Part shown: positions 5,624-49,271 of the stretch, piece after piece
How positions within the stretch are numbered: position 1 is the stretch's first letter
How the letters are laid out: each line of letters begins with the position of its first letter
Source: Thermoplasmata archaeon
GTDB taxonomy: Archaea; Thermoplasmatota; E2; DHVEG-1
Direction of reading: 5' to 3'
Length of the DNA stretch: 60,071 nucleotides
Assembly: GCA_030640585.1 (NCBI GenBank)
Contig: DAOWIZ010000080.1
Location: 1-60,071, forward strand
Position numbers and translations under genes: made by a program
Notes under the pieces: generated by a model
What the model saw: the letters and a program-made list of their open reading frames with translations, nothing else
Told to the model about the DNA's origin: nothing
Database searches by the model: none

Positions 5624-6388
5624 ATGAATAAAATAAAATTTCTGGGGACATCCGGCGGACGATTTGTATTGATAAATCAACTTAGAAAATCAGGTGGCAC
5701 ATGGCTTACACTTGATGATACAAACATCCTTATTGATCCTGGCCCGGGTTGTCTTGTCAGCTGTCATGCTAGCAAACCTAAACTTAATCCACAGAGCCTT
5801 GATGCAATTATTCTTACTCATCGTCATCTTGATCATTCAAATGATATTAATGTTATGATAGAGGCAATGGCTAATGGTGGATTTAATAAAAAAGGACTGG
5901 TTTTTGCACCAAGAGATGCGCTAGAAGATGATCCTGTTATTTTGAAACATTTTAGAGATCATGTAGAAAAAATCGAAATCCTGAAAGAAAAAGGAACATA
6001 CAAGATTGGAAATATCTCATTTGAAACTCCGGTGAAACATGTTCATGGTGCTGAAACATATGGTCTTAATTTTTTTGGGAAGAATCATTCTATTTCTTTT
6101 GTTACTGATACCAAATATTTTGATGGTTTGGAATCTTTTTATCATGGAGAAATATTAGTTTTAAATATTGTAATGTTTAAAGAAATGGAACATGTTATGC
6201 ATCTTTGTGTTGATGATGCTGAGAAAATAATTTCTGCTAATAAACCTAAGTTGTGTGTTCTTACACATTTTGGTATGACAATGATTAAGGCTAAGCCCTG
6301 GGAAATTGCAGAACGCTTTACCCGAAATCTTGGTGTTAAGGTTGTTGCTGCTAGTGATGGCATGTCTATAGATTTAGACAAATATTAA
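5624..6388 (+). CDS. MBL-fold metallo-hydrolase
   Basis: HxHxDH motif (THRHLDHSND), a downstream His/Asp pattern, 254 aa. Confidence 0.8.
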   Translation: MNKIKFLGTSGGRFVLINQLRKSGGTWLTLDDTNILIDPGPGCLVSCHASKPKLNPQSLDAIILTHRHLDHSNDINVMIEAMANGGFNKKGLVFAPRDALEDDPVILKHFRDHVEKIEILKEKGTYKIGNISFETPVKHVHGAETYGLNFFGKNHSISFVTDTKYFDGLESFYHGEILVLNIVMFKEMEHVMHLCVDDAEKIISANKPKLCVLTHFGMTMIKAKPWEIAERFTRNLGVKVVAASDGMSIDLDKY

Positions 6389-6466: not shown

Positions 6467-8491
6467 TTATCTTACTACGGCTACTGTGATAGTTGCATAG
6501 GCAAATCCAGCTGAATCGGCAATGATAATGTTTTCTAAACATTTTACTTTTACTTGTCCTGATGAGATTGATTGATCTGGCATAATGTTTAAGAATATAG
6601 ATTCACTATTTTCTATTTTTATAAAGAATTCGTATTCATCCGATATACTAAAGATTTCTTTTAATTCTTGATAAGGTACTTCTGATAGTTCATATATTTT
6701 ATCCATACTAAGCAGAGCAGTATAATCATTTTCGGTGACACTATTTTGTCTCGAGAGGCTAATTTCTTCTTCATTTCCTGTTAATATATATTTTCGTACA
6801 TTATGTGCAATAACAATGTTGTCTCCAAAGACAACCAAATACGTGTGATATTTTTCTATTTCAAGATTATAGGATGGTGCTTTTTCATATATCTTTTCTA
6901 ATGAAGTGACTTTTCCTTTGAATAAATGGTCTCCGAGCTTAAGATTTCCTGCTTGAATCCATTCATTGTTTATATATAGAAGGTGATCAGGAGTAACCTT
7001 AAGATGGTTGTTTACAATTAAATAGTAATCTGATATCATCTGATTAGGAGTATCATGAAAGATTTGAATTACTTTGTCTTTAGTTAAAGTGCCGGTTTTT
7101 TCATTGTATGATTTAACAATGTCTCCAATTTGGATTTCCTCAATATGTTTTTGTGTTGCATCGGCCATTAATATTTTTGTCCCAGCTAGGAAACACTTTC
7201 CAGTTTCTCCTTCTTCGCCTCCGCTAACAAGGATAGTATGATGAGATGACCAAGGGCTTTCTTTTCCATCACACATAGAATGAGGATCACTGTCATTATG
7301 ACCATTACCTGCAGGGTCATCTGCTGCTTTAACAGTTATGTAATAAGTACCTGCTGTAGACCAAGAATAATTTATATAACAGTATTCTCCTTTCCCTGAG
7401 TAGGGTCCTACCCAATCACTTTGATTACCATCATCAAAATCCCATTTAAAATAAATATCATCACCATCTGGATCTTCGGCATGTGTTCGAAACATTTCTA
7501 CTTTACCTACTTTTGTAGTATCAGGTCCATCTGGCGAATTTGGTTGGTTAGGAGGATCATTTGGAGGCATAACACGTATCATAACCTGTAAAGGTTCTGA
7601 CCAACTACTTTCTTTACCATCACTTAGATCGCCATTACCATCAGGATCATCTTTTGCTTTAACAGTTATGCTATAAATGCCGGGAGAACACCATGAATGA
7701 TACATCGTACAAATCCCTGAACTAGGATATGGTCCCACCCAATCACTTTGAGTACCATCATCCCAATCCCATTTAAAATAAATATCATTTCCTTCAAGAT
7801 CTTCTGTAAATGTCCAAAAACAATAGGATTTATTAGCATGTGGTTGTACTTCCACAAAGCACCACTTAGGTACCTCAGGATCATGTGGAGCAGAATTTGA
7901 CGATGTCGTGAATGTCCATGTTTCTGATGTGATATTACATGTTGAATCATCAACTGTTACATACCAACGGTATTCCTCTCCTTCTGATAATCCAGACCAA
8001 GTAACATTAGCTCTTGTACCACTCTCAACATCAACATCTACATCAATAAACTCTCCATCTCCAGAAGTGACATCATAGAAAGAAACCTTCATTACATCAC
8101 CTTTATCTATATCACTAACATAAACACTTAAATCCACACTGTTAGGTGGATTTGGATTTAAAGGTACAGAATCACCATCACCCGGACTTGGATTTTGTAC
8201 AGTTGGACATGAATTAAGAATAGTAATATCACTTATTGATCCAGTTGGAGGAACGGGTACCGGTGTTTCAGGATCTATTGCAAGACCAACTTGAGAGTCT
8301 GAAGTTAACAATAAACTCATTATCTCTGTAGCCTTTGCATTTGCATCGGCATGAATCTGTGCAGATCCTTGTTCTGCTGGAGGAGCCATCGAAGCAGCCA
8401 CAACAACGAGAGTTGTCATTAATGCTATGCTTGCTATAGAAAACTCAAGCGGCGAAGCAACCCCATAATTAGTTTTATATAATTTCCTCAT
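6467..8491 (-). CDS. class III signal-peptide (pilin-like) surface protein with Fn3-like and two PKD-like modules and an embedded Hint domain
   Basis: N-terminus MRKLYKTNYG|VASPLEFSIASIALMTTLVVVAA. Two repeats of IYFKWD(W/F)DDG.QSDWVGPY...Y.ITVKA.DDP.GNG. Hint blocks CFLAGTKI / TPDH / VIAHN. Confidence 0.8.
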   Translation of the reverse strand: MRKLYKTNYGVASPLEFSIASIALMTTLVVVAASMAPPAEQGSAQIHADANAKATEIMSLLLTSDSQVGLAIDPETPVPVPPTGSISDITILNSCPTVQNPSPGDGDSVPLNPNPPNSVDLSVYVSDIDKGDVMKVSFYDVTSGDGEFIDVDVDVESGTRANVTWSGLSEGEEYRWYVTVDDSTCNITSETWTFTTSSNSAPHDPEVPKWCFVEVQPHANKSYCFWTFTEDLEGNDIYFKWDWDDGTQSDWVGPYPSSGICTMYHSWCSPGIYSITVKAKDDPDGNGDLSDGKESSWSEPLQVMIRVMPPNDPPNQPNSPDGPDTTKVGKVEMFRTHAEDPDGDDIYFKWDFDDGNQSDWVGPYSGKGEYCYINYSWSTAGTYYITVKAADDPAGNGHNDSDPHSMCDGKESPWSSHHTILVSGGEEGETGKCFLAGTKILMADATQKHIEEIQIGDIVKSYNEKTGTLTKDKVIQIFHDTPNQMISDYYLIVNNHLKVTPDHLLYINNEWIQAGNLKLGDHLFKGKVTSLEKIYEKAPSYNLEIEKYHTYLVVFGDNIVIAHNVRKYILTGNEEEISLSRQNSVTENDYTALLSMDKIYELSEVPYQELKEIFSISDEYEFFIKIENSESIFLNIMPDQSISSGQVKVKCLENIIIADSAGFAYATITVAVVR
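6800..7195 (-). other. Hint (intein-like) domain, residues C433-N564 of the 674-aa protein
   Basis: Block A is CFLAGTKILMAD, block B is KVTPDH, block F is YNLEIEKYHTYLV and block G is NIVIAHN. The +1 residue is Val, which is not a nucleophile. Confidence 0.75.
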
Positions 8492-8632: not shown

Positions 8633-9145
8633 TTAGTAAATATCATAAGTTATCACCTCAGAAATACATTCATTATCATCACTTAATGTTAAAAAACAAA
8701 TTATTCCATCTGCTTCGTCATTAGTATATGTTAGTCCTATATATTTAGCATCAAAGTAATTACCATTTAATGATTCGGCAAAAAAAACAAATATATCTCT
8801 AGTATCATTAAAATAAGTAAGAACTAGAGGTACAAGAGTTTTTTCTTCGTAATTTAATTTACCGCTAAGTCTATCTCTAAGGGCTATTCCAAATTCCTTT
8901 CGGATATTATCGTAATCAGATTTTATAAAAGATGTTTTATCCAGAGAAACATCAACATTAACTAAACTTACTGTTATAGATGCAAGTGTAATAATTGCTA
9001 CGCTCAAGAAAATACCAGTTAGTAATAATAGTTGCGCATCATCCTTTTTATGTTTTCTACATCTTTTATTTGAATGAATTCTATTTTTGCTGTTATCTTT
9101 GAAGGAAGTTTTTTTCTTACCTAATGTAATTATATCATGTTTCAT
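8633..9145 (-). CDS. small class III signal-peptide (pilin-like) protein with a long basic leader
   Basis: ..KHKKDDA|QLLLLTGIFLSVAIITLASITVSLV, followed by a ~110-aa soluble domain. Lies 4 nt downstream of the preceding gene. Confidence 0.6.
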   Translation of the reverse strand: MKHDIITLGKKKTSFKDNSKNRIHSNKRCRKHKKDDAQLLLLTGIFLSVAIITLASITVSLVNVDVSLDKTSFIKSDYDNIRKEFGIALRDRLSGKLNYEEKTLVPLVLTYFNDTRDIFVFFAESLNGNYFDAKYIGLTYTNDEADGIICFLTLSDDNECISEVITYDIY

Positions 9146-9149: not shown

Positions 9150-9629
9150 TCACCTTAAAGTAAAATACAGGGTGAGGGCTACAATATAAATAAGACCATC
9201 AATTACAACAATTCTGGAGACGCGTGCTTCTTTTCCGATTTCAACTGGTGCCTTATACAATATTTCTGTGATTGGATGATCAGGATCATCTATTTGCCAG
9301 TCGGGATGTTGATTTAGCATCGATATGTTAATCCAGGAGATCCCATACAAAGTTCCTTTGGGAACACTTCTATTAATATAATCTGTAAATTCATCGATGT
9401 ATTCTGCGGTGGCATACCTAGCCAATAAACTAGGATATTGTTCAAGATTATCTGGTACTCCTTCAAGACTTGTTAGAATTCCAATACCCAAAATTTCAAG
9501 TTCATTTTCCTCAATTGTTGTTATACTAGGTGAAATATCAAAAGTTCTGACAAAAAATAGTGCCATAAGTAACATACCAGCTACAATAATGACTTCAAAG
9601 ACATGTATCTGAGCATAATTATTCATCAT
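9150..9629 (-). CDS. small class III signal-peptide (pilin-like) protein
   Basis: MMNNYA|QIHVFEVIIVAGMLLMALFFV. ATGA overlap with the upstream gene. Confidence 0.6.
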   Translation of the reverse strand: MMNNYAQIHVFEVIIVAGMLLMALFFVRTFDISPSITTIEENELEILGIGILTSLEGVPDNLEQYPSLLARYATAEYIDEFTDYINRSVPKGTLYGISWINISMLNQHPDWQIDDPDHPITEILYKAPVEIGKEARVSRIVVIDGLIYIVALTLYFTLR

Positions 9630-11536
9630 TTACCTCCTGAAACATTAATAATTCTTTCACCACGTTGAATAGTTAAATCACCTACAGCCCAATAGTAATC
9701 AGGACCTGGAGTGTCCGTATCATGAAATGTGATCTGTAACTTCCCTCCATCCGCGGCATCTACTGATATGTCAGATATCAACATTTTTTTATAAGAATTC
9801 TCACAACGCGGGACAGGATAAGAATTACCATTTATTGTAATCGTCATATTTTCAACTAGGTTATCTGGATCACCTACGGTAAAGATAAGACTGCAGATAT
9901 CGTTTACTTCTAGACCTTTTGTTAATGTTAAATTTGTGATTGTGAACATAGTAGCAGAACCAGAACCTGTAGAATTGCAAACAAAGTCATAACCAACGCT
10001 TCCGGTATCACGTTCCACTGAGTTTACCTTGTTTGGATTTTCCCATTTGTAATCCCGAGAATGAGTTCCATATACATATGCAACTGGGATTGATTCCTCC
10101 TGACTAGTAACATCCTCGGATACCTTGGCTTCAAATTTGCGAACAAATATCCAATCGTAGTATGCAGTAGTACTATCTTCCGTTGTACAAAGACCGAAAT
10201 AACCATCTCCAATAGGAGCAGGTGCGTATAGGTAGCCGCCAACTGAATAGTTTTCATAAAAATAACGGCAAACTATAGTGTAACTTTCATTTATAATATA
10301 TGTAAGTCTATTCCATCCTTGATTAACAGGCAAATCAGATGAGTTTTTAACTGTAGAAGTATCATCTATTATCGAGAGATTTTTATTATATCCGCTGGTA
10401 AAGTTTCCTGATGCAAATAGATATCCATGATCATAAGGAGCTCCGCTGCTTCCATCGTTTCTTGCAAACATGCTTGCTTCTCTTATATCTCCAACTGTTT
10501 TTGCTTTGGTTTCTATAACACATGAGGATGAACCAACTTGTATTGTGGAGTTTATTGCAGATCCATTTGTTAAAACTAGTTCACCATCCTCAATATATAT
10601 CTCTTCATTAGAAGTATTATACGGGTACCACCTACCAGAATCCGGATATGTCCCAGATGTTGTAAAGTCATCAAAGAAATCAAACGTGGCACTTCCATTA
10701 CTCAAAGGTGATGCAGAAACTTTGCCATGATACATAAAAATAATAGTGTCCTCTGGATATGAAAGAGATGTAATATTCACCCATATTCTTGATGTGTGTG
10801 TATCCCTAGGATACCATCTTTCTATCCAGTAATTTAACTTAGTGCCAGAGTTATCAGTAAAATTTAAGTCGGATCCGTCACTATTAGCCGTTGAATAATC
10901 AAAGTTAGTATCATCTAATTGGATTAGAATCTGATAGTCTGATAAAGGTCCAACTGGATTTTTTATTATAATAGGAGTTCTATATTTCCATTCCTTAAGG
11001 CTATCAGGCCAATTGTTATTGTTTGATGAATTTGTTACTCTTGTATGTCCTGTATTCCCCGTTGAGGTATTAGTACCAAAATCAAATCTATATATGTAGT
11101 CGTAACTATTGCAAGAAATATTTATCGCACCGTTCCCTCCATATATTTTACCGGATATTTCTATCGATTGTTTATTTGTGACATTGTAAAGCGTACTTTT
11201 TTCATTGATATTTCCATTGGTTGATCTAACATATACTGCACTATTATCGATTTCTATATAGTAAGAAAAATGATCCGCTAACCTGAGGGGAATCTCTAAT
11301 ACTGTCGAATAATTTGCATTTGGGTACTGTTCTTTCAATACATAAACATTTATTATCGCGTTTGCCACTCGATTTGCAATATTTTTAGCATGTATCTCAG
11401 ATGCATCACTGGCTTTCTCCTCGATAAGAGCATTAGTTGTAATTATAGTAACAGCGATTATAACCGTTGTTAAAGAAAGTGTTAACATATAACCTATTAA
11501 ATGAGAGACCCCGGAATTATTTTTTAAAATCCTCAT
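9626..11536 (-). CDS. class III signal-peptide protein with DUF2341-like and LamG/ConA-like lectin-type region
   Basis: MRILKNNSG|VSHLIGYMLTLSLTTVIIAV. The central WKYRTPIIIKNP..LSDYQILIQLD..NFDYS.ANSDGSDLNF.D..G.KLNYWIE pattern resembles DUF2341 (family recalled, not searched). ATGA overlaps at both ends. Confidence 0.75.
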   Translation of the reverse strand: MRILKNNSGVSHLIGYMLTLSLTTVIIAVTIITTNALIEEKASDASEIHAKNIANRVANAIINVYVLKEQYPNANYSTVLEIPLRLADHFSYYIEIDNSAVYVRSTNGNINEKSTLYNVTNKQSIEISGKIYGGNGAINISCNSYDYIYRFDFGTNTSTGNTGHTRVTNSSNNNNWPDSLKEWKYRTPIIIKNPVGPLSDYQILIQLDDTNFDYSTANSDGSDLNFTDNSGTKLNYWIERWYPRDTHTSRIWVNITSLSYPEDTIIFMYHGKVSASPLSNGSATFDFFDDFTTSGTYPDSGRWYPYNTSNEEIYIEDGELVLTNGSAINSTIQVGSSSCVIETKAKTVGDIREASMFARNDGSSGAPYDHGYLFASGNFTSGYNKNLSIIDDTSTVKNSSDLPVNQGWNRLTYIINESYTIVCRYFYENYSVGGYLYAPAPIGDGYFGLCTTEDSTTAYYDWIFVRKFEAKVSEDVTSQEESIPVAYVYGTHSRDYKWENPNKVNSVERDTGSVGYDFVCNSTGSGSATMFTITNLTLTKGLEVNDICSLIFTVGDPDNLVENMTITINGNSYPVPRCENSYKKMLISDISVDAADGGKLQITFHDTDTPGPDYYWAVGDLTIQRGERIINVSGGK

Positions 11537-13413
11537 CTTACCCCCCCTATGTTTACTTCGATGAACGAACTATCGAGAACAAAAGACGTTCCATCTGTTT
11601 GATAATATATTGTGTTTGGTCTATCTTGTATTTTTTCAAAATCATATGACATAGTGAAATAATTTATCCATAAATCTTTGACTTCTTTTAATGAATCATA
11701 TATCTGCATTTTGAAATTGTATATGTTGGAAAATTTTGGTTCTCGACTATAGCTATTTTTCATATTGAGTCCAAGTTCATATATTCTAGCACCACCAGCA
11801 CATGCTACATAGGATTCACCTATCTGTATTATCCTAAATCCAATAGCACCATTGCCCTCATCTTCCTCAAAAAAAGATGGACCGCTTTTTATACTATTAC
11901 TTATAGGTCCAAATAATAATATGCCGCCGTTTTCAAAAATTATTTTTTGAGTGCCCATATCATGACGAGACTCATAGGTTATAGAACCAAGATCAAACAC
12001 CCAAATCCTCCCAAAAGGCACATATCCCCTCAAACCACCAGCGGGATAAATATTGTTAAATAAATCTATTCTTAATGTACCGCTTAGTGGTCTGTCATTC
12101 TGAGTGGTTATTGTCCATGTATGAGGAGGACCAACATTATCCGTAACATCAGGAGATTCAGCATGATATGAATCTTCTGGCAAGTAATCTCCTGTTTGAA
12201 CATGTATTTCAGTTATATTATCTGGTTCGTATATAGTTTCATTCTTGTCTTTTGCTTGTAACGTTAATGTATATGTACCGGGTTTTGCATAAATATGCTT
12301 AAAACCATTATACCATGTATTGTTTGGTTGTAAGCCTGAATCGCTGATGCCACCATCTCCCCAAAAAATTCTATAACTAATGTCATCATTATTAGTAGGA
12401 TCCACTGCTTTTACTGAAATCGATTCGTTTACACCAGAATAAAAAGATGGTAATGGGGTAATAAACTCCGGAGTGTTTGGCGTAGTATCATCTATATATT
12501 TTATTCTATATCCCAAATCGTAACCAGGGACTGGATACCAGGATGACCCACCATCCGTAGTAGTATTTGCACCACAAGAACTATAATAAGAACTATAGGG
12601 AGAATCCTTGTCAAGATACCATTTGTAATAATTATAACTCCCATTTGCGAAGCTACCTCCGGAAGTATTTATACCAATATGATAAATTTTAGTAATATCT
12701 AATTGGATGTTGTGTGAACTGAAATCACATTCAATCCACTCATAAGAAGACGATATATCCTCCGATGGCACTATGACAGATGCCAATAGGTTATTTGGGA
12801 TCCCTCCGGTGTATATAGAAACATTTAGATCACTAGAAACTACACCTCTTTCCTCAACATATATCTTAACCTTATCTAATTCCCAGTTATCATTTGGTGG
12901 AGTAAATGATTGTGCACACCAAGTATTTTGATATATCTTTTTATATGGTGTTGTTTCGAAAGCCAATTGCTCTGTTGTTTCTCCAGGATCAAGCCAATAA
13001 ATTTGTACTCCGTCTATAAGACCTAAAGTTTCAGCTTCTATCGTAAATGTATTAGTTTCATTGTCCAAACCTGACACATTGAAATCAAAATCTTTGGGAG
13101 TGTAAGGTGAATCAGGGAATGTATACATTAGTATGAGTTTACTACCTTGAGAATCAATATTTAGAGAGGCTTCCTTATTAGTACTAACAACATTGCTAAC
13201 TCCCTTAGCTCCATATCCATCAATGATTAAACCCCGCATAGTGTTGTACATGATGTCAAATCCACCAAAAACAGTCTGAGATTCACCCATTATCTCTTTT
13301 TCTTCAATATAAGGAAGACCCCAAAAAAGAACCGCAGTTACAACCCCCAATACAATAGAAAGAGTCATTAATGTTGAAACAACCTCACTGACTGCATTAT
13401 TACTTATTTTCAT
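11533..13413 (-). CDS. class III signal-peptide (Pilin_N-like) protein with a PKD-like insert
   Basis: MKISNNA|VSEVVSTLMTLSIVLGVVTAVLFWG. Has one PKD-like module (ISYRIFWGDGG...YAKPGTYTLTLQAKD). Its N- and C-terminal segments are paralogous to those of the 1360-aa protein. Confidence 0.75.
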   Translation of the reverse strand: MKISNNAVSEVVSTLMTLSIVLGVVTAVLFWGLPYIEEKEIMGESQTVFGGFDIMYNTMRGLIIDGYGAKGVSNVVSTNKEASLNIDSQGSKLILMYTFPDSPYTPKDFDFNVSGLDNETNTFTIEAETLGLIDGVQIYWLDPGETTEQLAFETTPYKKIYQNTWCAQSFTPPNDNWELDKVKIYVEERGVVSSDLNVSIYTGGIPNNLLASVIVPSEDISSSYEWIECDFSSHNIQLDITKIYHIGINTSGGSFANGSYNYYKWYLDKDSPYSSYYSSCGANTTTDGGSSWYPVPGYDLGYRIKYIDDTTPNTPEFITPLPSFYSGVNESISVKAVDPTNNDDISYRIFWGDGGISDSGLQPNNTWYNGFKHIYAKPGTYTLTLQAKDKNETIYEPDNITEIHVQTGDYLPEDSYHAESPDVTDNVGPPHTWTITTQNDRPLSGTLRIDLFNNIYPAGGLRGYVPFGRIWVFDLGSITYESRHDMGTQKIIFENGGILLFGPISNSIKSGPSFFEEDEGNGAIGFRIIQIGESYVACAGGARIYELGLNMKNSYSREPKFSNIYNFKMQIYDSLKEVKDLWINYFTMSYDFEKIQDRPNTIYYQTDGTSFVLDSSFIEVNIGGVR

Positions 13414-13671: not shown

Positions 13672-16600
13672 TTATTCTAAATTGATTTTAATTAAAGCCG
13701 TTTTAAAAACCAACTGTTTTCCGTTATAACCGTCATAAGCTAGGAAACCATCAGATTGAGACTTAAACTTATAAGTCCTTGTTAAATACTCATGCCAAGA
13801 ACTACTATGTTCACCTGAATATTTGATTTTTAAACCATATGCATTGCAGTTCTGTTCATCTAAAAATCCTTGTTCTCTGGTAAAAGTATTCAGATTTTTG
13901 AAAGAAATCTCATAAGTTTCAGCACCACTACCGCTTTTTGAAACAGTGGTATCTTCTCTGATCATAGTTACGGTAAATCCAAGAATGTTTCCGTTCTCAA
14001 AGATATTATTTGAATAGCTACATCTATCTACACTGGCATCACCTGATAAAACTGACAATACACCACCATTCTGAAGAATTGTCTTATGTTCTCCATCTGC
14101 AACAATACGTCCAGTCTTAAACCCATAAATTTTACCAAATGGAACTTTACCTGCAGCAGGATCATTTGTAGATGGATAATTGTCGTTAAATAGATAGATG
14201 CAAAACGTACCAGTTAAATCCTTCTTAGTAGGGACGATGGGCATACTGATAGGATTGCCACCAAATGATTCGGAGGATATATTATCTGGTGGAACAATAT
14301 ACTGATCAGACAGTCTTATCGCCATTGGATCAGACCAATCACTCGTATCCTCATTTACATCTTCGGCTTTAACTCTAATTTCGTAAACACCAGGAGATGT
14401 CCAATAATGCGAGGGATATGGGCCACCCCATTCCTCAATGCTCGTATTAGCAGGATAGCTGCTACCAGTCTTATAATACTCGCTGCCATCTCCCCAGTCA
14501 AACCAATAATAAATATTATCTCCCTCTAAATCAAAAGATATGACACTAAAGATATACTCAATATTAGTACCATCTACACCACTGTAATACCTCGCAGGAT
14601 CGTCAACTCCAACAGCTGTAAAACCAGTAGGAATAGCAGGAGCACCGCCTGCGCTTACAAAAGCACAAACCTCATCATCATAAAAACTAGTTTGACCAAT
14701 TGTATCAGTTACACGAAGCATACACGTATGAGTATTATAATCACCATAATCATGGCTAACAGTATCGGATGAACCAGAATCATCAGCACTAAAAACCCCG
14801 GTATAATCAAAATCCCAGGCAAACTCATTTATACCATTATCATCAGATGAGCCACTAGCATCAAAATCAATTGTAGCATTCGGGCCACCATTATCAGCAT
14901 CAGTCCAATCGAAAAGAGCAGTTGGAGGATTATCTCCCGGTCCAACAGCCTGAACAATATGTGAGGTATAACCATATGCACCATCGTTGTCCCTTACACG
15001 AAGCCAACAGTTATGAGTATTATAATCAGTATAATTATGGATAACATTGACACCATAAGCATCAGGAGTAAAGAATGTCATTCCATCCCGATCAAAGTCC
15101 CATGAATAATTTACTATCCAACCACTACCTGAATCAAATGAACAACTAGCATCAAAACTTATTTCAGCACCCGGATCACCACCATCAATATCATTCCAAT
15201 TGAAACAAGCCGTTGGAGGATTAGCAGTTGAAGCAGTAGTACTAGCATAATCTGTACTCCATCGCCCATAATACTCCCCGGTACTTACTAATTCTTCTTT
15301 AGCATAGGTCCATGCGCGTATGTAATAGGTTATACCAGGGGTTACAGAGTTTGTACATGAGGCTCCCGTATCATTATCGTACCAGACCAACGCAGATGAA
15401 TCATCTGGATCCGAAGGATAACTACCAACCTTAGCTAATACCTTTGTATACACAACAGCACCAGTAATGTCACATGGTGCTTTATCCCATGTAACACAAA
15501 TCGTATTCGGGCCAGAGCCACCTTCATTTTTAGCTAAGTTAGAAGGTGGAGGTGGCACTGTAAAGAAAGGCTCTGGTCCACCATATTCAGTAAAAAACGA
15601 ACTTTCAGGAGTAACTGCTTTGGTACTCGCAACATATAAATCCCCTGAATTAAGATCTGCAACCTCTGCATCAAATGGACCCGCAGTGACACGATTCCCA
15701 GCAGGCTCATAGGCAGGTCCACATGAGGGAAAACAATTTGTATAACCAACAGAACACGCAGTTCCTTCACTACGCGTAGCGTCTAAAGCAAAAAGTAACC
15801 CGCTATCATCCAAATAACCGCTCAATGTTGCCGTAGTTGTTCCAACGTTTTCCTCGGGCGGCGATGTTGTAGTGACCTCAGGTTTCTCAACATAATGGAC
15901 TATTAGTTTCGGTTTATTACTACTGGCTCTACGTGAATAAAAATCGAAATGGTCAGTTTTATCGCCAGATTCATGGCCGGAAATCAGCCAACCATAATTC
16001 GTTCTTGTACCATCCCACATATCTCTTGTACTTTGTGTCATACCCCTACCACCATATAAAGGAGAACTATCACCCCAAGTCACCCAGCCAAAACTACTGG
16101 GTAATGTCGCTTCTGCAATTGTGTCAACATTAGACTCAGGTGGTGGTCGCAGTCGCATATGCACTCGGTGGGCACCTAATAAGGGCCACTCTTGGAGGCC
16201 GGATGCATCCCAGTATCTCCAGCTGGTATCACCGGATCCGGCCTCCAAGCCCTTCCAGTCATAATCATTAACTTCATTAGCAAAAACTGCATCACCGGCA
16301 GGATTATCTTCTAAATATTGGTAATAATATAGCTTCAATTCTGCTTTCTCAATAAATGCATCAGAAGGAATTTGATATAACGAAAATTTTAGTAATGCTC
16401 GATTCTTAGTACCAATGGGACCAGGATCAACTCTTAGCCACTCTTTCGTACAGCCATCTGTGTTAGTAGGGAAAAATCTCGAAATATAACAGTCTCGATG
16501 TGAATAAAAAGTTCTCCCTGATTCTGGTTCTTCTTCCTCTAGTGTTGTAAAATACCATGCCGGACCAATAGTAGAAAGATCATGATTATCCCTCGCAACT

Positions 16601-17754
16601 ATCTTCCAAAAATATGCTGTTTCATAGTTAAGTTCGGGTAGATTATACGGTATTGGTGTATAGTCATAGTCAAATGGTCCAATCGTATCATAATATGGTG
16701 GATTTAATGGATTTTGAGTACCAAAGTATATATCATATGTAACAGTATCACCAGAATCTGGATCACCTCCATCCCAACTAAGGTCATGATGGACATCGAC
16801 ATCGGTTTCGCCATCCTCTGGATCTGGATTACTGGGAACAAACGGAGAATGATCTATATCACCAAGCGGTTTAAGCTTAAACGGGGCACAAGACATCTTA
16901 CTAACACCAACAGAACCGGAAACAACAACAGCTTCAACATCTGACTTTGCTAAAAAACCATCAGCGAAATAGGCATTACCTGATTCCAAAATTAAATCAA
17001 AACTACGTTCCTTTGAAAAATTTTTTTCTATTGAAAACAACGAGATCTCTTCACTAGCTACATCAAATAAAACATCACCCACACTTAGCATTCCAGCTTC
17101 AACCCACATGTTATCAACAAATAACCTGTGATTAGGAGTAACTCTTAATTCATTATTAATAACTAGATAATAATCACTCATACGATCCGCACTATAAGAC
17201 AACAGTGCCTTTACATAAGCATCAACAAACTCCTTAGAAACTTCATCATATGACTTAACAACATCCCCTGCTCTGATGTCCTCAATGTTCTTCTGGGATC
17301 CATCTGCCATATCTATTTTTGTACCCGCAAGAAAACATGTATCATAAAGCCAATAAACAGTGGCACTATGGACATCTGGACCAGAAATAGAAAACTGATT
17401 ATCATCCAGAGTTACATTAAAATCCCAATCTTTATCATTAGAGTTAGAGTACAAGATTATTACCCCTTCATCATCGGAATCATCAATCCCAATAGAACCA
17501 CTGTTAATAGTAATCTCACTAGTGAAACTAGAACCATTCCCATCTCCAACTAAATTTCCAAGAACCTTATCAGCGATTTTAAATTGATTAACAATGGATT
17601 TATTCTCATTTTTATTTTCCTCGGTTTTAATGTACTGTGGTCCCCACACAAGAATTGTACCAGTTGCTGAGAAAAAAATCATCATTACAAGGAGTAAAGA
17701 TAGTACAGATGAGACAGCTTCATTATTTATTCTAAAATTTTTTATTTTTTTCAT
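13672..17754 (-). CDS. giant (1360 aa) class III signal-peptide protein: pilin-like core split by a Hint domain, Fn3-like modules and three PKD-like modules
   Basis: MKKIKNFRINNEA|VSSVLSLLLVMMIFFSATGTILVWG. CFLAGTKIDMADG Hint block at residue 140. PKD-like YSWDFDRDG, FAWDFDYTG and YYWFDWGDG modules. GGAGGGG SD upstream. Confidence 0.8.
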   Translation of the reverse strand: MKKIKNFRINNEAVSSVLSLLLVMMIFFSATGTILVWGPQYIKTEENKNENKSIVNQFKIADKVLGNLVGDGNGSSFTSEITINSGSIGIDDSDDEGVIILYSNSNDKDWDFNVTLDDNQFSISGPDVHSATVYWLYDTCFLAGTKIDMADGSQKNIEDIRAGDVVKSYDEVSKEFVDAYVKALLSYSADRMSDYYLVINNELRVTPNHRLFVDNMWVEAGMLSVGDVLFDVASEEISLFSIEKNFSKERSFDLILESGNAYFADGFLAKSDVEAVVVSGSVGVSKMSCAPFKLKPLGDIDHSPFVPSNPDPEDGETDVDVHHDLSWDGGDPDSGDTVTYDIYFGTQNPLNPPYYDTIGPFDYDYTPIPYNLPELNYETAYFWKIVARDNHDLSTIGPAWYFTTLEEEEPESGRTFYSHRDCYISRFFPTNTDGCTKEWLRVDPGPIGTKNRALLKFSLYQIPSDAFIEKAELKLYYYQYLEDNPAGDAVFANEVNDYDWKGLEAGSGDTSWRYWDASGLQEWPLLGAHRVHMRLRPPPESNVDTIAEATLPSSFGWVTWGDSSPLYGGRGMTQSTRDMWDGTRTNYGWLISGHESGDKTDHFDFYSRRASSNKPKLIVHYVEKPEVTTTSPPEENVGTTTATLSGYLDDSGLLFALDATRSEGTACSVGYTNCFPSCGPAYEPAGNRVTAGPFDAEVADLNSGDLYVASTKAVTPESSFFTEYGGPEPFFTVPPPPSNLAKNEGGSGPNTICVTWDKAPCDITGAVVYTKVLAKVGSYPSDPDDSSALVWYDNDTGASCTNSVTPGITYYIRAWTYAKEELVSTGEYYGRWSTDYASTTASTANPPTACFNWNDIDGGDPGAEISFDASCSFDSGSGWIVNYSWDFDRDGMTFFTPDAYGVNVIHNYTDYNTHNCWLRVRDNDGAYGYTSHIVQAVGPGDNPPTALFDWTDADNGGPNATIDFDASGSSDDNGINEFAWDFDYTGVFSADDSGSSDTVSHDYGDYNTHTCMLRVTDTIGQTSFYDDEVCAFVSAGGAPAIPTGFTAVGVDDPARYYSGVDGTNIEYIFSVISFDLEGDNIYYWFDWGDGSEYYKTGSSYPANTSIEEWGGPYPSHYWTSPGVYEIRVKAEDVNEDTSDWSDPMAIRLSDQYIVPPDNISSESFGGNPISMPIVPTKKDLTGTFCIYLFNDNYPSTNDPAAGKVPFGKIYGFKTGRIVADGEHKTILQNGGVLSVLSGDASVDRCSYSNNIFENGNILGFTVTMIREDTTVSKSGSGAETYEISFKNLNTFTREQGFLDEQNCNAYGLKIKYSGEHSSSWHEYLTRTYKFKSQSDGFLAYDGYNGKQLVFKTALIKINLE
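16942..17337 (-). other. Hint domain lacking the C-terminal His-Asn (Hedgehog / B-type BIL-like), residues C140 to about S271 of the 1360-aa protein
   Basis: Block A is CFLAGTKIDMADG and block B is RVTPNH. The terminal region is SFDLILESGNAYFADGFLAKS, with no HN. Confidence 0.7.
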
Positions 17755-24449: not shown

Positions 24450-24620
24450 ACTACCACACCACCAAAATCATTGATTTTGGAAGTGGCTTCCTAATTCAAT
24501 GACCGTACTCGCCAAAACTGTTTTCAGTCTTGGCGGAGGTACAATCTCCAAAGGCGTAAATTCGGGCAATCCCTGCCCTATTATTTGTTTTAGACCCCTC
24601 TCCAATATGTTCAGAGAGGC
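24446..24620 (-). ncRNA. candidate omega-RNA (reRNA) scaffold overlapping the tnpB 3' end and the right end
   Basis: Position is analogous to known TnpB omega-RNAs. This segment is the part conserved at nucleotide level in the ORF-less copy at 18.1 kb. A terminal hairpin is visible. Extent is not determined. Confidence 0.4.
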
Positions 24621-25646
24621 ATTATAATCCCTGTCAAGAGATTTACCATACTTATATATCTGTGACGTGTAACTTGGATCTACTTTGACCATTATCTTAC
24701 CAGCCCATTCTGCCTTGTAAGATAATATATCAAAGAATTTTCTCCAAGATACATCAAGTGTATTGCGTCTCATATGACGCTTTATTTGTTTAGATTTCTC
24801 TTCATTGCCAATGGATTTTAACATACCTGTTATGTTCAAATCTTCAACGCTGATGAAGTCAAACGTATCGACATAATGCTTTGCAACCTTATGGCAGAAA
24901 TCAGCACGCTGATTTGCCACCTGCTCATGCAGTCTGGCAACACGAACAATCTGCTTCTTTCTATTGTTTGACTCTTTTTTAGTCCTTGACAATCTTTTCT
25001 GCCTGCATCTTAACCGTTTCAAAGATCTCTTCAGATACTTCGGATTCTCAATGATTTTACCTGTTGTGTCAGTCAGGAACTCTGTGATGCCCATATCCAT
25101 ACCAACAATCTTTTTGATAGGTTGTTTCTGAACTGATTTGACTTCTTCAACAATTATATTTGCAAACCATCTACCAGATCTGTAACGCTTGATGATAACT
25201 TGTTTGATGTTTTCATCGAAATCCCTATGCATACGCATAGGTATATCTCCAACTTTGGAGATATGCAACCTGTTGCACTGTGTGTTCGTTGGAATAATTT
25301 TGAACCCGCTCTGATTGTAATGAATGGTTTTGAAACCAGCACTGCTTTTGAAACGCAGTCTACCAACTTTTCTACCTTTCTTCTTAGACTCAGATAATGC
25401 CTTCAAGTTGGAAAACAAACGATAAACCTCATGTTGCAATGCTTTAGAATAAACACCCTTCAAATGAGGATATTGCTCTTTCAACTTTGGCAGAGAGTTC
25501 TGCAAAGTATATCTGTCTGGTTTATCTTGTTTCTGCAATTGTTCAAGCATTACATTGTAGACAAATTTGCATTGTCTCATTGTCCAAAGCAGTTTTTGCT
25601 CCTGTTCTTTGTTTGGATACAAACGATACTTGTATGTTTTCAGCAT
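24468..25646 (-). CDS. tnpB: TnpB (IS605 OrfB-type RNA-guided nuclease homolog), zinc-finger-less variant
   Basis: N-terminus is MLKTYKYRLYPNKEQEQKL. RuvC motifs are GMDMGI, FISVEDL and DRDYNASLNI. Only 8 residues (IYKYGKSL) lie between TSQ and DRD, where the CxxC..CxxC finger normally sits. Confidence 0.9.
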   Translation of the reverse strand: MLKTYKYRLYPNKEQEQKLLWTMRQCKFVYNVMLEQLQKQDKPDRYTLQNSLPKLKEQYPHLKGVYSKALQHEVYRLFSNLKALSESKKKGRKVGRLRFKSSAGFKTIHYNQSGFKIIPTNTQCNRLHISKVGDIPMRMHRDFDENIKQVIIKRYRSGRWFANIIVEEVKSVQKQPIKKIVGMDMGITEFLTDTTGKIIENPKYLKRSLKRLRCRQKRLSRTKKESNNRKKQIVRVARLHEQVANQRADFCHKVAKHYVDTFDFISVEDLNITGMLKSIGNEEKSKQIKRHMRRNTLDVSWRKFFDILSYKAEWAGKIMVKVDPSYTSQIYKYGKSLDRDYNASLNILERGLKQIIGQGLPEFTPLEIVPPPRLKTVLASTVIELGSHFQNQ

Positions 25647-26560: not shown

Positions 26561-27736
26561 TTATTTTTTAAGACCTGCTTCTTTTCTTAGAAGATCTGCT
26601 TTGTCTGTTTTCTCCCAGGTGAAATCAGGTTCATCGCGACCAAAATGACCATAAGATGCTGTTTTCTTAAATATAGGCCGCCTAAGGTTAAGACTACTAA
26701 GAATTTCACTAGGTTTAAGTGGGAAAAAATCATGTACAAGACTTTCTATTTTATCAATAGGTATCTTATTTGTCCCAAAACAATCGATATTAACTGAAAC
26801 TGGGTCTGAAATACCAATAGCATATGCTAGTTGTATTTCACATTTATCAGCGATTCCTGCTGCTACAATGTTTTTTGCAATGTAACGGGCAGCATATGCA
26901 GCGCTACGATCTACCTTGGTTGGATCTTTTCCTGAAAAAGCTCCGCCACCGTGACGGCCGACACCACCATATGTATCAACTATGATTTTACGACCGGTAA
27001 GACCTGCATCAGCATATGGTCCCCCTCGTACAAATGCACCTGTTGGGTTTACATGAAATATTGTATCTTTGTCAATCCATTTTTTACAAACAGGTTTAAT
27101 CACTTTCTCAATTATATCTTTACGAATACGACTATGTGAAACACCACCGTCATGCTGAGTTGAAACAACTATTGTATCTGCACGAGTCGGTTTTCCTTTT
27201 TTATCATATTCAATAGATACTTGGGATTTACCATCTGGTCGTAGATATGAGATTCCGTTTTTCTTTCTAACATAGGCTAGTTTTTCTGTAAGTTTATGAG
27301 CAAGACTTATTGGAAGTGGCATAAATTCCTTTGTTTCATTACATGCATATCCATACATCATACCCTGGTCACCAGCACCTTGTTCTTTATGCAGGCCATC
27401 TCCCTCTGTCACTCCTTGTGATATATCTGGGCTTTGCTCTGTTATTTGAACCCATACTGAACAGGTTTCACATTCAATGCCATATTCTGCCTTTGTGTAA
27501 CCTATTTCTTTTATTGCATTTCTTACAACGCGGGGAATGTCTATGTAAGCTTTTGTTGTCATTTCTCCAAAAACCATTACTCCACCGTTTTTCGTACCTG
27601 TTTCTACAGCGACACGTGAGTTTTTATCCTGACTCAATGCTTCATCAAGTATGGCATCTGATATGACATCACACATTTTATCAGGATGTCCTTCAGTCAC
27701 TGATTCTGAGCTTATAATTATCTTTCTTTTTGTCAT
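26561..27736 (-). CDS. metK: S-adenosylmethionine synthetase, bacterial/eukaryotic MetK type
   Basis: [34 protein letters not shown] and [19 protein letters not shown] are canonical MetK signatures. Confidence 0.92.
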
Positions 27737-42178: not shown

Positions 42179-45100
42179 TTATTTTCGTCTGCGTCTGAGT
42201 AGTATGAATGCTACTCCAAGTGCTGCTATCAGTGTTAGTAGTTCGAAACCAGGTGCACCAGATACAATAGTTACTGACTCAGGATATGTTGCAACATCAA
42301 ATGTTCCAAATGTTGCTGTTATTGTATATGTACCTGTTTCTGTAAATGTTACTTGACCGTTTACAGTAGTACCTGTCGTAGCAGTACCTTCGGTTGGAGT
42401 GAATGTTACTGTTGCCCCGGTAATCAAAGCACCTGTATCTTCATTGGACACCGTTACAGTTACAGGAGACACAAATTTATCATCTTTATCTTTGTTTTCG
42501 CTGGTTACAGTTATTGTTAGTCCAGGCGTGTTAATTACACGTATTGACACTGTGTTCGGCTCTGGAGCATATCCTATCTTTGATGCAGTTATTGTCAAGT
42601 CACGGTCACTTGTAACCTGTGGAGCTGTAAATGTTGCTTGTCCGTTTGCATCTGTCTGCAATGTTTCTCCGTTAAATAGTACATCTGCACCTATGGCAGG
42701 TTCAGTGGTTCCTTCTTTCATGGCTGTAACTGTAAAGGTTCCGCCTTCTTCCACTGTTGTCACATCTATACTAAGGTCTAGCACCCAAGATGTAACTTTG
42801 ACTACTGTACCAACTAGCGTTTTACCACTTTCACCTACATCTATGCTAATGTTACCAGTTGTTGCTGGTGAAATAGAGAACGATACTCTACCATCTACAT
42901 CTGAAGTACCGTTTCTGTCAAATCCGCAACCATGTAGACGTACAAATACATCTGTTAGTGTTGTACCACGTCCTGTCACAGTCGTATATACCTTTGTTGT
43001 TCGTCCAAGTGGTATATAACATATACCATCAGATGCCTGTGGAGTAGGCGCAACGGATGGTATTTCCACCTTAATACGATCTTTACATTTTGCCCATTGA
43101 CCATCACTACCATCTGCTTGCAGTGGTTTAAACCATAATGTAAGGTATTGTGTTGCATTAGCACCCAGTTCACAAGCTGTTATTTGATCTACCTTTACAA
43201 CACCATTTACAATATTATCGCTGCTGATTTCAATCGACGTACTTCCAGTATCAGAACCATAAGTCACGCTACTAAAGTTACAGTACACCCAAGTCTTGTT
43301 GAATGTCCCTGCATCAGTCATATTGTCTATCCTTAGCGCACCGTTTGTAGGTTCACCATCATATGTCATAGTAAATATTGCGCTTATGTTGTTGTCTTCT
43401 CCTTTCCAGATCAACGGTGCTTTGTCACATGTAGCCTCTACTGGTTTTATCACAAGAGTTGCATTATATCCGTTACTGTTATGTGTATAGTTATAAGCAT
43501 GTACTGTATATGTACCTGCTTCAATACCCCAAACAGTATCAAACTCAAGTGAGTAAGTGACAGGCACGTGACTGTGTCCAGTCAGATAGGTATCATAAAT
43601 GTTGTTAAGTAAGTTATTTGATTCACTTGTACCTGTTACATCATCACCATTTGAGTCTATCAGTTCTATAACAAACTTATCTCTTTCTGCAGCAAGAATG
43701 TTTGGAACGTCTGTAGAGTTACCAGCAAATGTAGTATTGATGTAAAAGTTATCATACTCATATCCTGCCATAAGTGTCTCATGAGATATCTCTACTTCAA
43801 GATCACTTACTGGCTCCATCTCAACAAGTGCATAACCATCACGGTGACCTGCACCATCCACGAACACGGTCAAATTTCTTGGAGCCCTGATATTGGAAAA
43901 AAGAACTGTTGTTTGATTTGTTGTTTGCTGTGTCCTATTAAATAGTATTGAACATGTTGAACCAGATGCATCAATTTTGTCAACCCATGCATTTGTAACC
44001 TCATCATCCATTGGGTCACATGGACTTCTACTTGATACAACTGTTGATGTGTAATCATCGACATAGAAGAGGTATACTGTAGTTCCCCTCATATCCGAGC
44101 CGTCATCTGCATATTTAGCGGTTACAGTTAACGTCTGGTCCTGTTGGTCAATGTCAAACTTATTTGGGCTTACTGTCACTACGGTACCATTTTGGTCATA
44201 GTTAGCTCCTCCAATGGAGATTGTTTTTGTTATAGTAGTGTTATATGCAGTTATTTTAATGGTTATCGTTCCACCGCCACTGCTCATCGTTGGTATAATT
44301 GGAATACTCCATACACCAGTTGCTGCACCATTGAAACCACATTTAGCTGTATCTAGGCCATAACCAGGGAAACTACTTAGTTTACCAGTAAATAATGAAT
44401 CACCAGAAATGGTAATATTCTCTGCACAATCTCTAATCTTTGAACATTTACCACTATGATATCCTGCAGTTGTATCACCAAAGTAATTACCACCCTTATC
44501 ATATAGATAAAATTCTACATCTAGTGGCACACTGGCTACAGGTGGAACATATGGTATTACTCCATCGTTGTTACTCTTTTCATATCCCCAGAGCTCGGTA
44601 CCAACTGTTCCATCATCATCTATCCATTTAAATTGGAGAGACGGGGCCTTCTTAACTTTGAATTTAACAGTGGTATTATATTCTTCAGTATAGGCTTTAT
44701 GCTCACCATTTGCAATTCTATCTCCATTATAGTCTACATATATTTTAACTTTCCATGTACCATTAACACCTAAAGCATTTGTAGTTGCTAAATCGGCACT
44801 GTTGTTTCTACCCCACCTTGTCATATTAATATGTATGTATCCGTCCCTGTACTTGTCCTTATATACAACGATACAACCAGCGGCATCATCAGCACCTATA
44901 ACATCTTGTGTCCCACTAACACCTGTTCCTTTAGCAAAATCAGTGATATTAACGCCAGCAGTATTTATTACCGAGACCTTGACATCAGATGCGTCAAAAG
45001 CTGGTCCGCCACTTCTCTTAAGTAGAGTTATATTTAATTCGCCAGTGAAACCATAGTACATAGTGTAATTACCAGTTGGTAAATTAGTATATGGCGTTGC

Positions 45101-49229: not shown

Positions 49230-49271
49230 CTATTTTATATAACAGAATTAGGTTTTTGTTTGGTTGACTAT

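Follow-up and report, generated by a model that had tools for sequence, protein, structure and literature searches.

The window, a stretch of 60,071 nt from an uncultured, sediment-dwelling Thermoplasmata archaeon, carries on its minus strand a six-gene operon for pilin-like proteins, and two of the six subunits (w1360 and w674) contain a Hint domain. The operon and its downstream neighbour are arranged as follows:

13672..17754, minus strand: w1360, 1360 aa, operon gene 1, with a pilin-like N-domain (residues 1-139), the second Hint, a passenger and a C-domain
16942..17337, minus strand: second Hint, w1360 residues 140-271 (PT-HINT 30.1 bits; local HMM 123 bits)
11533..13413, minus strand: w626, operon gene 2, a paralogue of w1360 that lacks the Hint but shares its N- and C-modules; one PKD
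9626..11536, minus strand: w636, operon gene 3, pilin-like at its N-terminus (DUF7266) and with a DUF2341 domain (PilY1-type, adhesin-associated)
9150..9629, minus strand: w159, small pilin-like protein, at the same operon position in L001, L004, L006, L009 and L085
8633..9145, minus strand: w170, small pilin-like protein, at the same operon position in the same five loci
6467..8491, minus strand: w674, the 674-aa Hint-bearing pilin-like protein, last gene of the operon (ORF list)
5624..6388, plus strand: gene for an MBL-fold hydrolase, convergent, downstream neighbour of w674 (ORF list, domain scan)

The six-gene order is conserved in at least six other Thermoplasmatota loci (L001, L004, L006, L009 together with P0022, L085 and the P0007 contig), and every syntenic operon encodes at least two Hint-bearing subunits. 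In L004 and L006 the gene after the w674 equivalent codes for another Hint protein. The syntenic operon of L006 directly follows two T2SSE ATPase and two T2SSF platform genes; in L009 two T2SSE genes are followed by two intervening ORFs and then the operon (the T2SSF scan covered L006 only). Genes for an ATPase, a platform protein or a prepilin peptidase were absent from the 60,071-nt window itself. Pfam assigned DUF2341 (66 bits) and DUF7266 (33-36.5 bits) to w636, with weak matches to Pilin_N and DUF7289. Large 'PilY1-like' pilin-like proteins with DUF2341 have been placed in archaeal T4P loci (Makarova, Koonin & Albers 2016, PMC4858521). The w674 operon resembles these loci in its several class-III-signal proteins, one of them with DUF2341, and in the T2SSE and T2SSF genes that adjoin the operons of its relatives. 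It differs from that census, which mentions no Hint or intein-like modules, in having a Hint in two of six subunits. A literature search for Hint or intein-like modules in archaeal pilins returned nothing relevant, in agreement with the first-pass annotation, which knew of no report of Hint domains in archaeal pilin-pathway substrates.

An exact look-up of the w674 sequence returned no protein on record. Four modules were delimited in w674:

8207..8491, minus strand: N-module, residues 1-95, with a signal-like start and helices (family motif, inspection)
7196..8206, minus strand: passenger, residues 96-432, hypervariable, with two PKD domains (Pfam PKD 51.9 bits)
6800..7195, minus strand: Hint/BIL domain, 132 aa, residues 433-564 (Pfam, PDB, AF2, Foldseek, retranslation)
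6470..6799, minus strand: C-domain, ~110 aa, residues 565-674 (profile search)

The protein starts with MRKLYKTNYG|VASPLEF (the signal-like stretch reads MRKLYKTNYG|VASPLEFSIASIALMTTLVVVAAS), which by inspection resembles a class III signal with a short charged stretch, Gly at -1 and a hydrophobic helix. This helix lies at residues ~11-36 of the N-module and is joined by an amphipathic helix region; the motif [KR]N..[GA]|[VA][AS]SPLEF is common to N-modules throughout the family. The isolated N-module matched no Pfam entry even at E ≤ 10, and hence no curated pilin model; among the N-termini checked against pilin-type models, DUF7266 was matched only in the neighbour w636 and not in w674. Because Pfam matches are absent, the label 'pilin-like' for w674 rests on the motif and the operon context. 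The start motif, together with operon synteny with T2SSE/T2SSF genes in related MAGs, bears out the earlier description of the host as an exported, pilin-like archaeal protein. The PKD passenger region that had been placed upstream of the Hint was recovered by Pfam as two PKD domains, the best stretch covering residues 337-392 (7316..7483).

Retranslation of 6797..7198 on the minus strand gave K|CFLAGTKILMAD...TPDH...YNLEIEKYHTYLVVFGDNIVIAHN|V, with the KYHTY block included. Cys433 is encoded at 7193..7195, Asn564 at 6800..6802 and the +1 residue Val565 at 6797..6799. The other block residues are Thr500 and His503 in block B, His549 in block F and His563, which together with Asn564 occupies 6800..6805. 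The complete Hint that the first-pass annotation had described at residues 433-564, with Cys1, TPDH, a terminal Asn and Val at +1 (AHN|V), was thereby reproduced at the same coordinates. In the profile searches it had proposed, both Hint models exceeded their curated cut-offs, well above what chance would give: PT-HINT (PF07591) scored 44.5 bits (cut-off 27.7, E 2.4e-11) and Hint (PF01079) 41.0 bits (cut-off 29.7). The intein-specific models all stayed below threshold (PF14890, 31.4 vs 35.8; PF05203, 25.6 vs 32.1; TIGR01445, 19.2 vs 24.5; TIGR01443, 11.4 vs 15.6).

A sequence search of the PDB aligned the full Hint to that of the Streptomyces umbrella toxin UmbC (8w20, E 5e-11) and to a BIL of C. 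thermocellum (2lwy, E 2.4e-10), with inteins reaching E-values of only ~1e-2. The AlphaFold2 model, built from a 22-sequence alignment, had a pLDDT of 87 with a core above 93. In Foldseek its best matches were the BILs 6y75 and 2lwy (E ~1e-9 to 4e-10, TM 0.7-0.8); inteins and Hedgehog ranked below. PDB matches at E ≤ 1e-3 numbered 53, and the best 50 of the 53 were all BILs, inteins, Hedgehog or Vint. The domain is thus predicted to adopt the HINT fold, and profile, modelled fold and the presence of Cys1 and TxxH place it in the HINT superfamily. The difference in PDB E-values between 2lwy and the inteins was used, with the fold ranking, as a proxy for the BIL motif comparison of Amitai 2003; both put BIL domains ahead of inteins.

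The w674 Hint is 132 aa long and lacks an endonuclease insert. With class 1 mini-inteins (Ssp DnaB, Mtu RecA) it has in common the HINT fold and the four splicing blocks. These blocks, the mini-intein size and the weak, sub-threshold matches to intein models could be explained by a degenerate true intein, or by an inactive relic Hint kept as a structural spacer. Such an origin is very unlikely in view of the related Hints. We surveyed ~45 of them, 42 with an identified end, and used a separate 22-sequence alignment for conservation. Cys1 was present in 44 of 45 and the terminal Asn in all 42, the terminal dipeptide being HN in 31 and SN, KN or IN in the remainder. The residues at +1 were Ala (10), Gly (9), Glu (6), Asp (5), Val (5), Leu (2) and one each of Lys, Ile, Ser, Thr and Asn, the Asn being a false regex end. 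A nucleophile thus occurs at +1 in about two of 42 cases (one Ser, one Thr). Since all others share a non-nucleophilic +1, this is a trait of the family, Val itself occurring in 5 of 42. In the 22-sequence alignment, Thr and His of block B were invariant, as was the terminal Asn; conservation was at least 90% for each of Cys1, the His of block F and the penultimate His. Positions -1 and +1 are highly variable.

The loss of the +1 nucleophile is therefore family-wide and not private to one genome, as had been raised as the alternative, and the retained catalytic residues show no decay. The family's Hints lie between domains of surface proteins that are variable and non-essential. In features that define class 1 inteins the w674 Hint differs throughout: it has no +1 Cys, Ser or Thr, the curated models are sub-threshold, it does not occupy a conserved site of an essential protein, and signs of homing or mobility are absent. 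Its terminal His-Asn, non-nucleophilic +1 and location in a variable secreted protein without homing endonuclease are those of A-type BILs, and the earlier reading as a BIL-type Hint was supported as far as computation reaches. The decaying intein was rejected on the +1 common to the family, the retention of Cys1 and Asn, and the presence of a Hint in all full-length members found.

The modules of w674 evolve in different ways. Full-length orthologues (P0009-P0014, P0018, P0021) have the N-module, Hint and C-domain in common with w674. Among orthologues, identities are 22-86% for the N-module and 49-74% for the Hint (0% gaps), while passengers share 13-23% with that of w674 at 12-45% gaps. P0010 illustrates this with 86% identity in the N-module, 74% in the Hint, 87% in the C-domain and 20% in the passenger. 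The passenger of P0010, largely different from that of w674, holds an extra Hint. A Hint is present in every full-length family member found, always together with the N-module and the C-domain, and its conservation matches that of the two terminal modules. A rough NJ tree places Hints from the same gene position together, and not those from the same genome. These patterns indicate that the Hint is under purifying selection and a fixed, conserved component of the w674 family, which also speaks against a relic. Recent horizontal insertion of the Hint was rejected, as its GC and GC3 (0.26 vs 0.21 for the gene) agree with the host gene.

The C-domain is predicted to consist of helix-helix followed by three strands, beginning with a conserved Y..(G)G.[DE]E motif and ending in a beta-hairpin. 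An initial profile search of homologous proteins gave one match; the exhaustive search of 1.84e9 representatives gave 29, each at a protein C-terminus. A Hint lies upstream in every full-length match, abutting the C-domain except in P0030 (~90-aa spacer). Modelled alone, the C-domain had an AF2 pLDDT of 55.6 and no Foldseek match at E ≤ 1e-3, and in isolation it matched no Pfam family, toxin families included, even at E ≤ 10. The proposed resemblance of this segment to the neighbouring pilin-like proteins was not borne out: hhalign gave probabilities of 1.2% and 0.2% against the w159 and w170 families.

PT-HINT as the top Pfam match and the UmbC Hint as the top PDB sequence match raise the question of a polymorphic toxin, in which the PT-HINT would free the C-terminal 110 aa as an effector delivered by a pilus-like apparatus. 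It has been proposed that Hints in surface pro-toxins set the distal module free through autoproteolysis (PMC3113570), and w674, with its export signal followed by variable repeats, a Hint and a short C-domain, mimics such proteins in layout. As in UmbC and RHS toxins, a secreted multidomain protein carries the Hint ~110 aa before its C-terminus. The distribution of variability is the reverse of that in polymorphic toxins, however: the C-domain is conserved and the polymorphism is in the middle of the protein. No immunity-like gene lies next to w674, the neighbour being the convergent MBL-fold hydrolase gene, and w674 has a fixed place in the pilin operon. Moreover, most Streptomyces PT-HINTs in the same scan have Ser, Thr or Cys at +1, unlike the w674 family. 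We regard a toxin as most improbable. It was rejected because the C-domain forms one conserved family (29 clusters), has no toxin match and is not accompanied by an immunity gene.

The sequence evidence makes it rather likely that w674 contains an A-type-BIL-like autoprocessing Hint of the PT-HINT class, which is a fixed, selected part of the protein encoded last in a type IV filament (pilin-like) operon of an SG8-52-like Thermoplasmatota host and cleaves after export. The precursor would be inserted into the membrane and exported by means of its class-III-signal-like N-terminus, and the Hint would fold outside the cell. An N-S acyl shift at Cys433 would then convert the Lys432-Cys433 bond into a thioester, and cyclisation of Asn564 would break the Asn564-Val565 bond. 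As the +1 residue is Val, no trans-esterification would take place and three separate pieces would be expected as main products: the N-module still joined to its PKD passenger of variable sequence, the Hint on its own, and the 110-aa C-domain, which is conserved. In this way the Hint would act as a built-in single-turnover protease that makes the anchoring or assembly modules and the variable adhesive passenger separate or separable. Simple release of the passenger cannot be the whole story, because the minimal orthologues P0027 and P0031 (360 aa) have no passenger.

BIL domains, which lack a +1 nucleophile, yield mostly N- and C-cleaved products (PMC7664689). The first-pass annotation had limited the available chemistry to cleavage. 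Its premise, a non-nucleophilic Val at +1, stood; the restriction proved too narrow, since A-type BILs can splice as well (PMC5874633) and conjugation of the N-flank to lysines is known from a eukaryotic BIL (PMC8616854). The surface protein is probably cut, or re-joined, by its own Hint after export; cleavage is favoured and re-ligation appears less likely. In the latter case the α-amino group freed by Asn cyclisation would attack the N-junction thioester, as in A-type BILs, and the passenger would be joined to the C-domain (...GETGK to VRKYILTGNEEE...). The mature chain would comprise N-module, passenger and C-domain, and the excised Hint would have been needed only briefly, for folding or timing. 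Complete splicing by another mechanism is on record for A-type BILs, which 'can splice completely' (PMC5874633), and 2lwy, among the closest matches in sequence and structure, is a BIL that ligates without nucleophilic side chains, to go by its title as cited in PMC7664689. The co-occurrence of N-module, Hint and C-domain would suit ligation equally, and the C-extein begins with Y..GG.[DE]E, which is conserved among relatives, Glu at +11 included. Reported BILs nevertheless give mainly cleaved products (PMC7664689), and the great variability at -1 and +1 would be unusual had efficient ligation been selected. Several relatives (P0010, P0023, P0024, P0032, L001) have 2-4 tandem Hints per protein, a layout more reminiscent of polyprotein processing. 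Splicing of this kind is in our estimation unlikely.

A-type BIL domains were reportedly described by Amitai et al. in 2003 and Dassa et al. in 2004. Like BIL4 of C. thermocellum (2lwy; Foldseek TM 0.71-0.81 with the w674 model), the w674 Hint has a CF[LV]AGT start with Cys1, TxxH, a terminal His-Asn and no +1 nucleophile. Both are ~130 aa long, lack an endonuclease and are located in the variable parts of exported surface proteins that are not conserved. The host is different, being a class-III-signal pilin-like subunit whose position in the type IV filament operon of an archaeon is fixed. The archaeal origin of the window is evident from DTD2, RPA, DUF63 and an unsplit RpoB, which clusters at at least 90% with that of Thermoplasmatales archaeon SG8-52-1; it conflicts with the 'bacterial host' in the BIL name, not with any mechanistic feature.

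In bacterial surface proteins and toxins, Hint/BIL domains are familiar as self-cleaving modules of sporadic occurrence. Here a Hint is obligatory in its family, flanked by conserved N- and C-modules and fixed in position within subunits encoded by a type IV filament operon of an archaeon, with up to four tandem copies in relatives. If these Hints are active, pilus-associated proteins of the widespread, sediment-dwelling SG8-52-like Thermoplasmatota would mature by intramolecular chemistry after export. This would add a new post-translational step to type IV filament biology and provide a natural case of surface adhesins that process themselves as 'polyproteins' and whose passengers are exchangeable. 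Being compact (132 aa), +1-independent and from a new lineage, w674-type Hints could also serve protein engineering.

In w1360, a large passenger of PKD/CBM type and then a conserved domain at the C-terminus follow the second Hint. This Hint retains Cys1 and a TPNH block, and its block F His and terminal His-Asn are replaced (..YFADGFLAKS|D). Such a Hint would perform the N-side reaction only and detach the 139-aa pilin-like domain from the ~1100-aa passenger. This Asn-less, Cys1-only configuration is Hedgehog-like and conserved in two genomes. It invites the idea of thioester-driven conjugation, in which an external nucleophile (Lys of another pilin-like subunit, an envelope component or a lipid) resolves the Cys1 thioester and becomes covalently linked to the N-fragment. 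A transfer of this type, similar to that of Hedgehog or BUBL, would cross-link or anchor pilus components without sortase, and the presence of at least two Hint-bearing subunits in each syntenic operon is in line with it.

The Tetrahymena thermophila BUBL BIL2 (6y75/6tmm), which links its N-flank to lysines of other proteins by isopeptide bonds (PMC8616854), is the top structural neighbour of the w674 Hint model (E 3.5e-10, TM 0.72-0.76), and BUBL polyproteins, like several members of the w674 family, have tandem Hints between modules. BUBL is eukaryotic, cytoplasmic and flanked by ubiquitin-like domains, unlike w674, and of the two it is BUBL that has demonstrated isopeptide-forming activity. 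The family has no conserved Lys near the junctions and no region resembling a sterol-recognition region, no candidate acceptor emerged, and the default fate of such thioesters is hydrolysis. Conjugation is accordingly improbable. It is likewise quite doubtful that the w1360 (Cys1-only) and w674 (Cys1 and Asn) Hints, in analogy to Hedgehog cholesteroylation and BUBL isopeptide formation, use their thioesters as built-in ATP- and sortase-independent ligases that join pilus components covalently to one another or to the cell envelope and so assemble or anchor the filament. The Asn-less w1360-type Hint also occurs in L085 and in the 99%-identical P0053, and VLVHN is retained in the w1360-Hint orthologues of L003-L006 and L009.

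The ORF and its translation match exactly what the first-pass annotation had claimed for the Hint domain of w674, a 674-aa pilin-like protein:

6467..8491, minus strand: w674 gene, ORF of 674 aa
6800..7195, minus strand: Hint of w674, 132 aa, Cys433 to Asn564, then Val565

Positions 6797..7198 of the minus strand are translated as K/CFLAGTKILMADATQK...VTPDH...YNLEIEKYHTYLVVFGDNIVIAHN/V. That the module is complete and not a chance resemblance was borne out by profile searches, PDB matches and a structural model. In Pfam searches, residues ~429-554 matched PT-HINT with 44.5 bits (cut-off 27.7) and Hint with 41.0 bits (cut-off 29.7), and two PKD domains were found upstream; the intein-specific models PF14890, PF05203, TIGR01445 and TIGR01443 all stayed under their curated cut-offs on w674. 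The best-scoring PDB sequences were the Hint of UmbC, an umbrella toxin from Streptomyces (8w20, E 5e-11), and 2lwy, a 'bacterial intein-like domain' of Clostridium thermocellum (E 2.4e-10), both in end-to-end alignments; true inteins reached E ~1e-2 at best. The AlphaFold2 model obtained with a 22-sequence alignment as input was confident (pLDDT 87, core >93), and its closest solved folds were Tetrahymena BIL2 (6y75/6tmm) and 2lwy, with mini-inteins and Hedgehog ranking behind. By sequence, predicted fold and catalytic configuration the module is an A-type-BIL/PT-HINT-class domain and thus of a known kind.

The window is archaeal, encoding DTD2, RPA, DUF63 and an RNA polymerase subunit B that is not split; its RpoB falls into the same 90%-identity cluster as that of 'Thermoplasmatales archaeon SG8-52-1'. 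A run of six co-directional genes ends with w674; the other five are, in order of transcription:

13672..17754, minus strand: w1360, first
11533..13413, minus strand: w626, second
9626..11536, minus strand: w636, third, with DUF7266 and DUF2341
9150..9629, minus strand: w159, fourth
8633..9145, minus strand: w170, fifth

All six proteins open with a class-III-signal pattern (short charged stretch, Gly/Ala, hydrophobic helix); a curated pilin-like model was matched by w636 only. The six-gene order recurs in the Thermoplasmatota MAG loci L001, L004, L006 and L009 (P0022 being the last gene of L009) and in L085, a locus from a metagenome; on the contig of protein P0007, the last four positions are found again. 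No type IV pilus assembly genes were found within the window itself. In L006 two T2SSE ATPase genes, followed by two T2SSF platform genes, precede the pilin-like cluster, and in L009 the cluster lies downstream of two T2SSE ATPase genes with two ORFs in between; the intervening genes were scanned in L006. Because of this synteny and the adjoining T2SSE/T2SSF genes, the cluster is regarded as the block of pilin-like genes belonging to a type IV filament system.

A search with the C-domain profile against 1.84 billion representatives retrieved 29 proteins carrying the 110-aa C-domain, placed at the C-terminal end. All full-length members share one layout: an N-terminal motif ([KR]N..[GA]/[VA][AS]SPLEF), a variable passenger, one to four Hints and the C-domain, to which the last Hint is directly adjoined with one exception (a spacer of ~90 aa). 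Every complete gene recovered from metagenomes with the N-module bears a Hint. Across the w674 family and the other operon genes, Cys1 is present in 44 of 45 Hints, and all 42 Hints with an identifiable end, as called by regular expression with a couple of imprecise calls, possess the terminal Asn (HN 31, SN 6, KN 3, IN 2). The non-nucleophilic +1 residue reported at first pass is likewise kept by the homologues: in these 42 Hints it is A, G, E, D, V, L, K or I, with Ser and Thr occurring once each. In the 22-sequence alignment, the block B Thr, block B His and terminal Asn are invariant, and conservation is 90% or more at Cys1, at the block F His and at the penultimate His. Compared with w674, the Hint shows 49-74% identity without gaps, the N-module 22-86% and the C-domain 32-87%, as against 13-23% identity with 12-45% gaps in the passenger. 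P0010, which carries an extra Hint, is 86%, 74% and 87% identical in N-module, Hint and C-domain, and 20% in the passenger. These patterns indicate that the domain is functional and evolves under purifying selection. A decaying intein that had lost its +1 nucleophile only in this genome is excluded, since Cys1 and Asn are kept, the +1 pattern is family-wide, the Hint is conserved, Hints cluster by gene position (first versus last gene) and not by genome in a rough NJ tree, and their base composition agrees with that of the host gene.

Several w674 orthologues (P0010, P0023, P0024, P0028, P0032 and L001:8588-11986) contain Hints in tandem, two to four per protein, that fall into two sequence subtypes, CFLAGT…HN and a longer CCFPAGT…[SK]N with a '…DG..GWA.(I/V)(N/D)P…' insertion, which set different passenger modules apart in a polyprotein-like layout. 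Others (L004:8808-9890; L006:14034-15116, which equals P0027; P0031; P0026) are passenger-free 360-aa versions: a membrane helix region at the N-terminus, a Hint with Ser-Asn as its last residues and the conserved C-domain make up the whole protein. The orthologous ORF L085:10001-13229 extends more than 400 aa past the normally terminal C-domain (…TVTVVK/EYTGG…) into FN3/PKD-like repeats, which could be due to loss of the stop codon or to a gene fusion.

A further Hint is encoded by the first operon gene:

16942..17337, minus strand: second Hint, residues 140-271 of w1360, right behind a 139-aa pilin-like N-domain

It retains Cys1 and TPNH; where the block F His and the terminal His-Asn would stand, it reads ...YFADGFLAKS/D. 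L085 (...YFADGYLVRS/D) and a protein of 99% identity in another assembly share this Asn-less variant; more distant w1360 orthologues (L003-L006, L009) retain VLVHN. Comparison with the Hint-less paralogue w626 locates the insertion right behind a conserved '...YWL[ND]' strand, a domain boundary. This Hint looks like a maintained, Hedgehog/B-type-like version acting on the N-side only. In the first-gene Hints of L004, L005, L006 and L009, N-[DE]-T, an N-glycosylation sequon, precedes Cys1 at the N-terminal junction (WLNDT/C, WMNET/C); the window copy instead reads YDT/C.

In the w674 Hint, the residues for the N-S acyl shift (Cys433, Thr500, His503) and for Asn cyclisation (His549, His563, Asn564) are complete, and an acyl-accepting nucleophile at +1 is absent. 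BIL domains of such configuration 'produce predominantly cleaved products' (PMC7664689). The best-supported reading, comparative and computational in its basis, is a single-turnover self-cleavage after export at one or both junctions. Cleavage would part w674 into N-module with passenger, Hint and C-domain, and in w1360 would take place on the N-side only; the tandem arrays of two to four Hints in relatives are in keeping with a polyprotein-processing logic. Since the 360-aa orthologues P0027 and P0031 lack a passenger, the relation of N-module and C-domain is arguably itself the point, through non-covalent re-association after cleavage or through ligation. The same orthologues keep alive the rival of splicing, in which ligation joins the N-side and the C-domain; an alternative splicing route is also open to A-type BILs (PMC5874633). 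A eukaryotic BIL transfers its N-flank onto lysines of other proteins (PMC8616854).

Release of a distal module has been proposed for Hint domains in secreted pro-toxins (PMC3113570). A polymorphic-toxin reading of w674 is unlikely: conservation lies in the C-domain, which is without a toxin-family match, and no immunity-like gene lies downstream of w674. Streptomyces RHS/Umb-type proteins from the same scan (L023, L034, L037-L079) carry the same Hint type ~100-140 aa from the C-terminus, but in another context and mostly with Ser, Thr or Cys at +1, in contrast to the Hints of the archaeal pilin cluster. The proposed resemblance of the C-terminal segment to the neighbouring pilin-like proteins is not supported: nothing was detectable with hhalign against the w159 and w170 families (probabilities 1.2% and 0.2%). 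For the C-domain alone, AlphaFold2 gave a model of low confidence (pLDDT 55.6) that had no Foldseek match at E<=1e-3, and Pfam gave no hit up to E 10.

What is new is the archaeal host for a domain of this class, its occurrence in class-III-signal pilin-like proteins at fixed positions of a conserved type IV filament operon, its obligatory rather than sporadic presence, and the pairing of an Asn-containing and an Asn-less Hint in one operon. Intein or Hint modules are mentioned neither in a 2016 census of archaeal T4P systems nor in a 2026 preprint on archaeal TFF machineries, and full-text literature searches found no report of Hint modules in archaeal pilins.

Other features of the window include:

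24468..25646, minus strand: full-length IS605 OrfB/TnpB gene with HTH, OrfB and TNB domains
47522..48253, minus strand: second, shorter TnpB-like ORF with RuvC and TNB
26561..27736, minus strand: bacterial/eukaryotic-type S-adenosylmethionine synthetase with three S-AdoMet_synt domains
42179..46564, minus strand: large, probably secreted protein of 1461 aa, without confident Pfam domain
53529..55736, minus strand: large, probably secreted protein of 735 aa with NosD/beta-helix and two PKD domains

A local HMM scan found no Hint in the two large proteins, and no archaeal-type S-adenosylmethionine synthetase was seen in the window. A tRNA gene at 49141..49230 on the plus strand (Rfam 51.7 bits), for which ARAGORN called an odd 4-base anticodon, probably encodes an archaeal tRNA with an intron. 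The first part of a Trm5/TYW2 methyltransferase ORF (49119..50330) overlaps the tRNA gene, and the true start of this ORF is likely further downstream than the listed 49119.
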